This document shows positions 19,297-20,388 of a DNA stretch of 64,000 nucleotides, one piece after another. Source of the DNA: an uncultured Pseudomonadota bacterium (GTDB lineage Bacteria > Pseudomonadota > Alphaproteobacteria > Rs-D84); the NCBI GenBank assembly GCA_902771695.1, contig CACXXP010000008.1, forward strand, positions 1,886 through 65,885. Direction: 5' to 3'. The notes below the pieces were generated by a model. That model had not been told where the DNA came from. It saw only the letters and a list, made by a program, of their open reading frames with translations, and searched no databases. Each line of letters starts with the position of its first letter. The stretch's first letter is position 1. A program made the translations under genes and the position numbers.

Positions 19297-19750
19297 TAAA
19301 CGCATATTGGTTGGGAAAATCGTTGCACCCCAGGGTATTCGGGGCGAAGTGCGTGTACAAACTTTTACGGCAAAGCCATCTGATTTTGGAACGATTGGGG
19401 TGTTTGGCGACAACATACCCCAAAAATCGTTTCATTTTGTACGTGCTTTACCGAATACAAATGTTATTATCGCGCGCATAGACGGTACAGACAATCGTAA
19501 CGCCGCAGAAATACTGCGTGGCACGGAATTGTTTGTTAATCGTGATGATTTGCCACCAACCCAAGATGGCGAATATTACCAAGCAGATTTAGTTGGGATG
19601 CCCGTTATCCGCAACAATGCTGAAATCGGACGCATTGTCTGTTTCCAGAATTTTGGTGCGGGGGATATTATGGAACTGGATAATGGGGACATGGTGTCTT
19701 TCAAGGGTGCAAAGGTTGATATGGAAAGCAAGGTAATATTTGTAGATTAA
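19286..19750 (+). CDS. rimM: 16S rRNA processing protein RimM
   Basis: ILVGKIVAPQGIRGEVRV PRC-barrel family N-terminus and EYYQADLVGM motif. Confidence 0.9.
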   Translation: MNTNKRILVGKIVAPQGIRGEVRVQTFTAKPSDFGTIGVFGDNIPQKSFHFVRALPNTNVIIARIDGTDNRNAAEILRGTELFVNRDDLPPTQDGEYYQADLVGMPVIRNNAEIGRIVCFQNFGAGDIMELDNGDMVSFKGAKVDMESKVIFVD

Positions 19751-19859
19751 TAATAAAAAATGGTGAATATGACGCGAAAAATCGGGTGGTTATCCAGAAT
19801 AAGATAAGGGCAGAGAGAAGTTAAAGGAACCAAATAATATTACAAAAAAGGAGTAAATA

Positions 19860-20237
19860 ATGGCGAAGAAAAACAGCGGGAAAAAAATAGATGATGGGAA
19901 TCGGCAGATTAGTATTATAGCCGAATACGACCTGGGTAGAAATTCGAGAACCACTATTGCAAACAACTGCAATCCGGTCCTGGTTTGTAGTAATTGCGGT
20001 GTATCGCGTGAGGCATGCCCTCATTATGCAACGCTAAAAGGAATTGCGAAAAAGACCCCAGAGTATGTACGGTTTTTACAGAAAAATGCGATTGATAACA
20101 ATCGCATAATGGGGGTGCAACCTAACACACCATCTGCGGTGATTGAAGCAGTGACATCCGCATTAAATGCAGCCGAAAAATGCAAAAACGGTATCGTTAC
20201 ACTGAATATGAATAATATGACCGCATGTTGTCACTAA
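19860..20237 (+). CDS. Small Cys-motif protein 1 (125 aa)
   Basis: AAGGAG SD; NNCNPVLVCSNCGVSREACPHY cluster; ends ...TACCH. Confidence 0.55.
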   Translation: MAKKNSGKKIDDGNRQISIIAEYDLGRNSRTTIANNCNPVLVCSNCGVSREACPHYATLKGIAKKTPEYVRFLQKNAIDNNRIMGVQPNTPSAVIEAVTSALNAAEKCKNGIVTLNMNNMTACCH

Positions 20238-20328
20238 ACTTGTTAAAATCTTGGGCGAAATGCCCAAGGTGTTGCGTTTATTTATACTATCAGTTGCCGA
20301 CAATGTTACAAAATTTAATGACAACAAC

Positions 20329-20388
20329 ATGGTATCTTTCAAGGGAGCAGAGGTGGATTTAGAACAAAAGAAAGTAATTGTAAAATAA
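20329..20388 (+). pseudogene. Diverged duplicate of the last 20 codons of rimM (remnant 3' end)
   Basis: ATGGTATCTTTCAAGGGAGCAGAGGTGGAT...TAA versus rimM 19691-19750 ATGGTGTCTTTCAAGGGTGCAAAGGTTGAT...TAA. Same length, about three quarters identical. Encodes MVSFKGAEVDLEQKKVIVK versus MVSFKGAKVDMESKVIFVD. Confidence 0.65.

Follow-up and report, generated by a model that had tools for sequence, protein, structure and literature searches.

How does a small gene enter a core ribosomal operon and leave behind it a second copy of its neighbour's 3' end? The question is raised by a 64,000-nucleotide stretch (the window; assembly GCA_902771695.1, contig CACXXP010000008.1, positions 1,886 to 65,885) from 'Candidatus Enterousia', a rumen or gut alphaproteobacterium (uncultured order Rs-D84) whose genomes measure about 0.75–1.0 Mb (PMC12306168). 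The operon concerned has the order rpsP-orf89-rimM-C1..C9-trmD-rplS, in which C1 to C9 are nine small Cys-containing open reading frames (ORFs; 19860–23130), and the last 20 codons of rimM recur downstream of C1. An earlier reading of the sequence alone, the original prediction, had taken this repeat for the scar of an insertion. We found that the event is an insertion with exactly known boundaries: a module of 638 bp (19708–20345, or equivalently 19689–20326) is present in the window and absent from the close relative L055. The repeat is likely to be the footprint of a 'C-terminal displacement' of rimM by a module from another Enterousia lineage.

The two rimM ends, copy 1 (19691–19750) and copy 2 (20329–20388), are identical at 45 of 60 positions (75%), in register and without gaps. 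Both end in a TAA stop and encode MVSFKGAKVDMESKVIFVD* and MVSFKGAEVDLEQKKVIVK*, respectively, where the asterisk marks the stop; the predicted equal length and approximate identity were thus reproduced by computation. The best other ungapped match of copy 1, on either strand of the 64-kb window, reaches 31–32 of 60, and an independent repeat search recovered the same pair (72 nt, 74% identity; 19689–19760 and 20327–20398). Strong similarity starts 2 nt 5' of the ATG. Upstream of the repeat, the in-register identity drops to 47% over 30 nt and to about 31–38% farther out. A RimM profile hidden Markov model (HMM) matches copy 2 with 21.7 bits at HMM positions 125–154. As predicted, no stop codon interrupts the frame of copy 2 from 20221 onwards, and the 578-nt interval between the two ends contains a single ORF, C1 (19860–20237), the first with a Cys motif, together with a hairpin, CTTGGGC-GAAAT-GCCCAAG, at 20250–20268.

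Among 1147 RimM homologues, one protein (P0010) is 95% identical to RimM of the window and has the C-terminus ..MVSFKGAEVDLEQKKVIVK, the exact peptide of copy 2. On its contig, L055, both flanks are 96–98% identical to the window, and rimM is followed after 12 nt by C2, with neither C1 nor a second rimM end. A three-way alignment shows the window to be equal to L055, with zero mismatches, over 19621–19707; the first mismatch falls at 19708, and up to 19707 the two rimM genes are 98.8% identical. On the right side, window and L055 are equal over 20335–20404. The 638 bp between these limits are bounded by a 19-nt direct repeat, ACATGGT(G/A)TCTTTCAAGGG, present as a left core, ACATGGTGTCTTTCAAGGG (19689–19707), within which the crossover would lie, and as a right core, ACATGGTATCTTTCAAGGG (20327–20345), which matches the left core at 18 of 19 positions. 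The sole difference inside the right core is at 20334, an A in the window and a G in both L055 and the left core. The corresponding blastn high-scoring segment pairs, 14660–19720 and 20327–21023, overlap on L055 at 6404–6435. The insert is flanked by direct repeats of the target gene's own 3' end (18 of 19 nt in the core, 75% over 60 nt), and the empty site in the close relative carries a single copy. This uninterrupted allele, together with the same layout in the next outgroup, L056, confirms the predicted insertion scar in the rimM 3' end. None of the contigs from 12 metagenome runs that were aligned to the window skipped the 638 bp.

All parts of the insert are read on the forward strand. 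It begins with the putative incoming surrogate rimM terminus, the distal part of copy 1 (19708–19750, ..AKVDMESKVIFVD*), which is closer to the rimM ends of L058/L159 and L158 than to copy 2. The rimM gene itself (19286–19750, forward strand, 154 amino acids; Pfam RimM N-terminal domain at 7e-16, PRC barrel) would therefore consist of a native body and a foreign last 43 nt. The C1-module leader follows (19751–19859); its block 19803–19859 (GATAAGGGCAGAGAGAAG...AAAAAAGGAGTAAATA) is conserved and aligns with the leaders of L001 and L058, and an indel of 20–21 nt at about 19757–19777 is polymorphic among strains. C1, an orphan ORF of 125 amino acids, is the sole gene of the insert, which encodes no recombinase. 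The hairpin lies 13 nt 3' of the C1 stop, gives a terminator-like match and may be a terminator or a processing site. The spacer that forms the right end (20269–20326) does not align with L055; its last ~33 nt contain a badly decayed RimM-like stretch (ADNVTKFNDNN), which the HMM alignment enters ungapped at positions 125–135. Beyond it lies copy 2, hereafter the relic, which agrees with the functional rimM end of L055 at 59 of 60 positions. Its stop is 12 nt before C2 (20401–20787), the original first cassette, and the segment 20389–20787 comprises the native rimM-to-C2 junction (AAAGGATAAACA) and C2.

Which of the two ends belonged to this rimM originally? The outgroup L056, with a RimM 84% identical to that of the window and flanks of about 82% nucleotide identity, has the layout rimM, 11 nt, a C2-like gene, C3 (80%), C4 (67%), a C7-like gene, C5 (70%), C8 (93%) and trmD; C1 and the relic are both absent. 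Its rimM end matches copy 2 at 52 of 60 positions and copy 1 at 48 of 60, and it ends in ..VK* like copy 2. The junction of stop, ribosome-binding site and ATG after copy 2 (AAAGGATAAACAATG) is the same as that after the live rimM in L055, L056, L036 and L039. Because of the layout and tail of L056 and this shared junction, the array 3' of the relic appears to have been inherited vertically and the C1 module to be a gain. Comparison of the relatives' RimM C-termini, by which the original prediction hoped to tell the ancestral copy, thus points to copy 2 (59 of 60 in L055, 52 of 60 in L056), which is, as judged from these alignments, the original rimM terminus of the lineage. The insertion is younger than the split from L056.

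The divergence between the copies had been attributed either to the arrival of one copy with the incoming DNA or to an old event. The former part of this claim stands and the latter does not: since just 1 nt in 60 separates copy 2 from the functional tail of L055, the divergence is due to a foreign copy 1 rather than to age. Copy 1 resembles other lineages in its distal 43 nt, which match the rimM end of L058/L159 at 37 positions and the L158 relic at 38, as against 29 for copy 2 and L055. The rimM bodies of the window and L058/L159 are only about 71% identical, despite distal ends that are 86–88% identical. In turn, the L158 relic matches the live L159 rimM end at 41 of 43 positions, with flanking proteins 95–97% identical, and for this reason the end of the VD* type appears to be native to the L158/L159 clade. 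The window, L058/L159 and L001 have in common the leader block 19803–19859, the hairpin and a C1 that starts with MAKKN, and the hairpin stems in L058/L159 and L001 differ by pairing-preserving changes. By its sequence, the insert resembles a chromosomal segment of the VD* lineage, comprising rimM end, leader, C1 and hairpin. That the incoming DNA supplied a replacement terminus, as had been proposed, agrees with the grouping of distal copy 1 with rimM ends of the L158/L159 lineage.

The C1 family is small: 4 clusters in 5.8e9 proteins, with all members directly 3' of rimM in Enterousia. Searches of genome contigs with the leader motif returned L001 or nothing, the VD*-tail pattern was found in the L159 genome only, and among 98 mostly unrelated matches to the hairpin 19-mer L121 was the sole relevant one. 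Viral contigs contained neither a C1 relative nor a VD* tail. C1 and C2 gave no Pfam, NCBIfam or PHROG match, and an AlphaFold model of C1 from a 5-sequence alignment had a predicted local distance difference test score (pLDDT) of 49, too low for a fold search. As separate observations, the C1 stop TAA (20235–20237) is replaced by CAA in the strain clade L030–L034, where C1 gains 3 codons and ends in ..CCHQTC* (128 amino acids, P0001), and the exact hairpin 19-mer, CTTGGGCGAAATGCCCAAG, occurs twice in a 61-nt tandem repeat of L127 (1167–1247, reverse strand), another ruminal alphaproteobacterial metagenome-assembled genome, with no rimM context. A block of apparently low diversity at 19822–20469 was dropped from consideration when more strains revealed about 14 polymorphic sites in C1.

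The original prediction suggested looking for the same junction in related genomes, and the arrangement does recur. A six-frame scan of about 60 loci from about 40 species with the RimM HMM detected extra rimM ends in 3 species only, those of the window, of L058/L121/L159 and of L158, and each relic lies directly 3' of a C1-family gene. A nucleotide-level scan for second rimM ends (at least 39 of 60) in 37 related loci found none. L058/L159 have the order rimM (MVSFRGANVDMEHKVIVVD*), leader of about 100 nt, C1-like gene, hairpin, second rimM end (MVSFKGAEIDFKGRTIFVK*) and, last, a long homologue of C2; L158 has rimM (..TVTIK*), short leader, C1-like gene, spacer, second rimM end (..DLDNSEMVAFCGANVDMEHKVIVVD*) and the next cassette. 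As in the window, where the copy-1 end with C1 precedes the copy-2 end with C2, these are displacement layouts. The surrogate ends are rimM ends of other lineages, VD* in the window and L159 and IK* in L158. Measured from the core ATG, the right junction is at about −2 in the window, about −8 in L058, and −12 or farther in L158; the spacers of the three species are 37% identical or unalignable, and neither a fixed crossover point nor conserved element arms are shared by the independent insertions. L001 carries a C1-like and then a C2-like gene without a relic, and other cassettes were gained or lost without leaving rimM fragments. A contig of 2043 nt from another species (run X9, record 22) has a rimM end 85% like that of the window and, about 977 nt past it, an exact 18-mer of the relic end (20374–20391), which may mark a fourth relic with a larger insert.

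These observations can be ordered into a mechanism. The ancestral rimM would have ended in ..MVSFKGAEVDLEQKKVIVK* and been followed by 12 nt and C2, a layout that persists in L055 and L056. The donor lineage would have had a C1-family gene natively 3' of a rimM ending in ..VDME.KVI.VD*, and the 638-bp module entering the recipient rimM would have consisted of the last 43 nt of the donor's rimM, the leader, C1, the hairpin and the spacer. The left junction lies in register inside the conserved 19-nt stretch ACATGGTnTCTTTCAAGGG, and because it is in register rimM is kept intact, with what would be the donor's end. At the right junction, where the spacer meets ACATGG, the join is non-homologous, and the old 60-nt end would have been stranded upstream of C2; the microhomology there amounts to 2 nt (AC). 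As for the enzymology, we infer that host homologous recombination guided by the rimM end, combined with one illegitimate join, is the most likely, and no dedicated integrase would be needed. Possible routes include homology-facilitated illegitimate recombination, break repair copied from foreign DNA, and a single crossover that takes in a circularised fragment. The direct repeats could then permit precise loss of the module, re-attaching the stranded end. Homology-guided recombination is favoured because neither the insert nor the surroundings of the modules contain a recombinase gene, the junctions differ, the spacers are unalignable, the insert is collinear with the chromosomal order of relatives (rimM end, leader, C1, hairpin), and the surrogate ends come from other lineages.

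The original prediction had spoken of a classic site-specific insertion. This part was not borne out: the insert neither encodes nor adjoins a tyrosine or serine recombinase, junction distances differ in three species, and the DNA is collinear with relatives. The accompanying statement that no recombinase is present holds for the operon but not for the window, which encodes a XerC-like tyrosine recombinase (41931–42845, reverse strand; TIGR02224 at 8.6e-88, below the equivalog cut-off). No other recombinase was identified in the window, and this one is probably a housekeeping enzyme. A dedicated integration of a less direct kind was also considered, in which the C1 module is a non-autonomous cassette, similar to a cis-mobilizable element (CIME) or an integrative mobile element exploiting Xer (IMEX), that moved as a circle under an enzyme encoded elsewhere (XerC/D or an unlinked integrase) recognising a core in the rimM 3' end. 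Such a cassette would account for the 19-nt direct repeat exactly at both insert ends, for the recipient-type G in the left core and the A in the right core, as expected of a crossover within TCTTTCAAGGG, and for the same gene end having been hit in three species; the XerC-like gene would be at hand, and a bulged palindrome (20226–20326), whose outer arms include the spacer, adjoins the core. That palindrome, however, is weak (z = −2.1 as DNA and −1.2 as RNA against shuffles) and absent from L158 and L001, and the core does not form a partial palindrome of the dif or attC kind. None of the modules, including those of L058, L158 and L159, contains or adjoins an integrase gene, junction positions and spacer sequences vary among the three species, and the surrogate ends are no more than the rimM ends of other lineages. 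We consider a dedicated integration unlikely. By contrast, two further explanations fail on the flanks and the copies themselves. If the rimM with copy 1 and C1 were native and the block of copy 2 and C2 to C9 had been imported and joined after C1, the flanks of the 638 bp would not be expected to be L055-like (96–99%) right up to the core on both sides, the downstream array would not be shared with L056 (C3 80%, C4 67%, C5 70%, C8 93%), and distal copy 1 would not be the outlier. For the window, we rejected such an import of the array downstream of the relic on account of the L055-like flanks and the L056 array, and the mirrored event is very improbable here; it may be true of L159, where the VD* end is native to the clade and the relic (KGAE..VK*) and long C2 resemble the window/L055 lineage. 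If the rimM end had been duplicated in tandem in situ and the copies had then diverged, with C1 arriving separately, their equal length and shared frame would be explained. Such a duplication is even less probable, given that copy 2 agrees at 59 of 60 positions with the live rimM end of a near-identical strain, that distal copy 1 matches a different lineage at 37–38 of 43 positions against 29 for copy 2, and that the foreign stretch has its limits at the repeat.

Several points weigh against the displacement of the rimM end by homology-guided recombination. In the window, the two boundaries share one 19-nt core, which is short for recombination of the RecA type and is what a site-specific enzyme would give. 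The same target was used in three species, a XerC-like recombinase is encoded 22 kb away in the window, and an unlinked integrase elsewhere in the genome is possible. The exact donor was not found, and C1 is only 23–26% identical to other proteins of its family. Strain and metatranscriptome data consisted of assembled contigs, in which circles and rare empty alleles are not visible. Finally, L055 may not represent the ancestral state, as its rimM agrees with C1-bearing strains in two derived nucleotides, 19582G and 19603T. In the PFK-S16 flank, L055 is no farther from C1-bearing strains than these are from one another; together with the shared derived single-nucleotide polymorphisms, this indicates that L055 may have arisen by precise excision via the core repeats, with the stranded end re-attached in the manner of an activated Rhs orphan. 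On the other hand, no C2 haplotype of the species is more divergent than that of L055 (19 nucleotide and 16 amino acid differences), which fits an ancestral, never-inserted lineage. We lean towards the ancestral state and regard an excision revertant as less probable but realistic. Under either polarity, the C1 module is a discrete, repeat-bounded unit.

Integrative elements that enter gene 3' ends and provide a surrogate end include tRNA and transfer-messenger RNA (tmRNA) islands, SCCmec in rlmH, and integrase-less CIMEs. The C1 module resembles them in the 3' end duplicated as flanking repeats, the empty site with one repeat and the intact target, but it has no adjacent integrase, measures only 638 bp, lacks a conserved attP arm, and its junction varies between species. 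It also resembles integron arrays, as the small ORFs are co-oriented, mostly promoterless and strain-variable, and new cassettes enter at the promoter-proximal end, moving older ones back. Unlike in integrons, no attC is found between the cassettes (spacers of 8–36 nt, no repeated imperfect palindromes), and IntI is absent, the window's one tyrosine recombinase being XerC-like.

A closer parallel is C-terminal displacement in rhs, cdiA and type VI secretion system (T6SS) effector-immunity loci, where old 3' ends and their downstream genes accumulate as orphans (Kirchberger et al., 2017, PMC5361080; original reports Jackson 2009, Poole 2011 and Koskiniemi 2014, as summarised in PMC5361080). In both settings, a conserved 5' gene part would serve as the homologous anchor and the incoming DNA would bring a new 3' end with a small gene, while the old 3' end and its downstream gene are shifted downstream as an orphan; the shared core would allow a later re-attachment of the orphan end, and no integrase takes part. 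The settings differ in that the displaced gene is rimM, a housekeeping ribosome-maturation factor inside the rpsP-rimM-trmD-rplS operon. The displaced part spans 14–20 codons without a toxin domain, its variable portion being 13–14 residues of the PRC-barrel C-terminus, and the downstream genes are Cys-rich orphans rather than known immunity genes. A pairing of toxin-domain 3' end and immunity gene was not found, the gene being rimM and C1 and C2 being without a family match.

Homology-facilitated illegitimate recombination, as far as it is described in PMC3240628 and PMC5361080 (de Vries and Wackernagel, 2002; Prudhomme et al., 2002; Meier and Wackernagel, 2003), likewise has one in-register junction and one illegitimate junction with 0–3 nt of microhomology (AC here), and foreign DNA that is collinear with the chromosome of a relative. 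In our case, the visible donor sequence on the homologous side does not exceed 19 nt, far below experimental anchors, and the recipient lost nothing and had a 19-nt stretch doubled; a circle crossover or break repair fits this better. In Neisseria, minimal mobile elements are variable cassettes between conserved genes, exchanged by transformation and flanking homology (PMC3082526, PMC1538595). The interval between the conserved, essential rimM and trmD is similar, with 0–10 differing small genes and no mobility genes, but the exchange of minimal mobile elements leaves no duplication, whereas the C1-type module leaves a displaced gene end.

If rimM was indeed displaced in this way, the spare gene end would make the insertion harmless, and the stranded old end would make excision reversible. 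C-terminal displacement, so far a hallmark of polymorphic-toxin loci, would extend to a housekeeping gene, and the array of Cys proteins between rimM and trmD might be a conflict- or immunity-like locus inside the core ribosomal operon of a genome of about 0.9 Mb. The first cassette might then be functionally matched to the RimM tail. A tentative further idea is that C1-type modules are recombinase-less, self-propagating cassettes that use the last ~60 nt of rimM as a portable homology arm. The window and L055 provide a base-pair-resolved before/after pair for the entry of a foreign gene into a core ribosomal operon; the host is a gut symbiont, uncultured and with a reduced genome, and the vicinity holds no machinery of mobile elements. 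Stranded gene ends of this type could serve as markers for ordering acquisition events in metagenome-assembled genomes.

Asking whether the relic has a role of its own, we considered that it may persist because it is translated, as an upstream ORF whose start would be the hairpin-loop ATG (20260), or because it serves as a spare end for reuse after excision. This would be an add-on to the insertion models, and termination 12 nt before C2 would preserve the coupling formerly given by rimM. In all three species, the frame of the relic continues without a stop well beyond its 5' end (chance about 0.01, a rough estimate from stop-codon density), the hairpin-loop ATG is in frame in the window and L058/L159, and gene callers predict an ORF of 42 amino acids at the relic, which is invariant in all strains examined and transcribed with C2 and C3, according to metatranscriptome contigs. 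Against a retained function, there is no Shine-Dalgarno sequence 5' of the ATG, L001 has its C1-like and C2-like genes without any relic, and the lack of polymorphism across about 10 strain types is not significant over 60 nt, where about 2 changes are expected. Moreover, the event is young. With a single difference from L055 in 60 nt and a synonymous divergence between window and L055 of about 3–5%, the relic has had no time to decay, and decay would not be expected in any case. Retention for a function is thus doubtful, although the relic might still be translated and preserve the coupling to C2. Metatranscriptome contigs cover rimM, C1 and the stretch from the relic to C3. Contigs of four runs start at 20264–20266, inside the hairpin, and C1 contigs end at 20174–20210; as weak evidence, these contig ends are compatible with RNA processing or termination at the hairpin.

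The module lies at the head of a highly variable interval. Between rimM and trmD, about 40 Enterousia species carry 0–10 small genes, whose sets and orders differ even between strains. The array proteins are lineage-restricted and Cys-rich, with an N-terminal C..CP and a C-terminal CxxC motif, and many end in ..SK* or ..SR*; among 1.84 billion representative proteins, the C4 family accounts for only about 8 clusters. When the window is compared with L055, the ratio of non-synonymous to synonymous polymorphism (pN/pS) is 1.35 in C2, 1.46 in C7 (22291–22578) and 1.31 in orf89 (19039–19296), and 0–0.2 in PFK, rimM, trmD, rplS and tsaD. This suggests, from the substitution pattern, relaxed or diversifying selection on the cassettes and orf89, and the ratios of about 1.3–1.5 in C2 and C7 suggest an arms-race function.

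Other cassettes of the array vary as well. L055 is without 21024–22165, and in it the N-terminal part of C3 is joined directly to the C-terminal part of C6; the junction shows no homology. It is also without C9 (22771–23121), an indel flanked by AGYAAATAAnAT, which corresponds to the ..SK* ends of C8 and C9. In strains L028 and L030, ORFs of 62 and 96 amino acids replace C8 and C9. Between L158 and L159, PFK (96%), TrmD (97%) and L19 (99%) are highly similar, but RimM is 75% and the orf89 homologue 65% identical; RimM and orf89 thus diverge much faster than their neighbours.

The remaining genes of the operon are rpsP (18571–19023) and orf89 (19027–19296) on the 5' side and trmD (23117–23821) and rplS (23818–24207) on the 3' side, and a terminator follows rplS at 24224–24249. 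An Rfam search of the operon gave no match apart from weak terminator-like ones 3' of rplS. An HNH endonuclease gene (13895–14485, reverse strand; Pfam HNH at 8e-9, weak IscB-like match) is located within a 665-bp stretch (13995–14659) missing from the otherwise near-identical L055. It lies 5 kb upstream of rimM and is the second polymorphism of the presence/absence type. Protein S16 carries an Ala/Glu/Pro-rich C-terminal extension made of 12-nt repeats (18913–18999), in which a 12-nt indel at 18964 is polymorphic among other strains.

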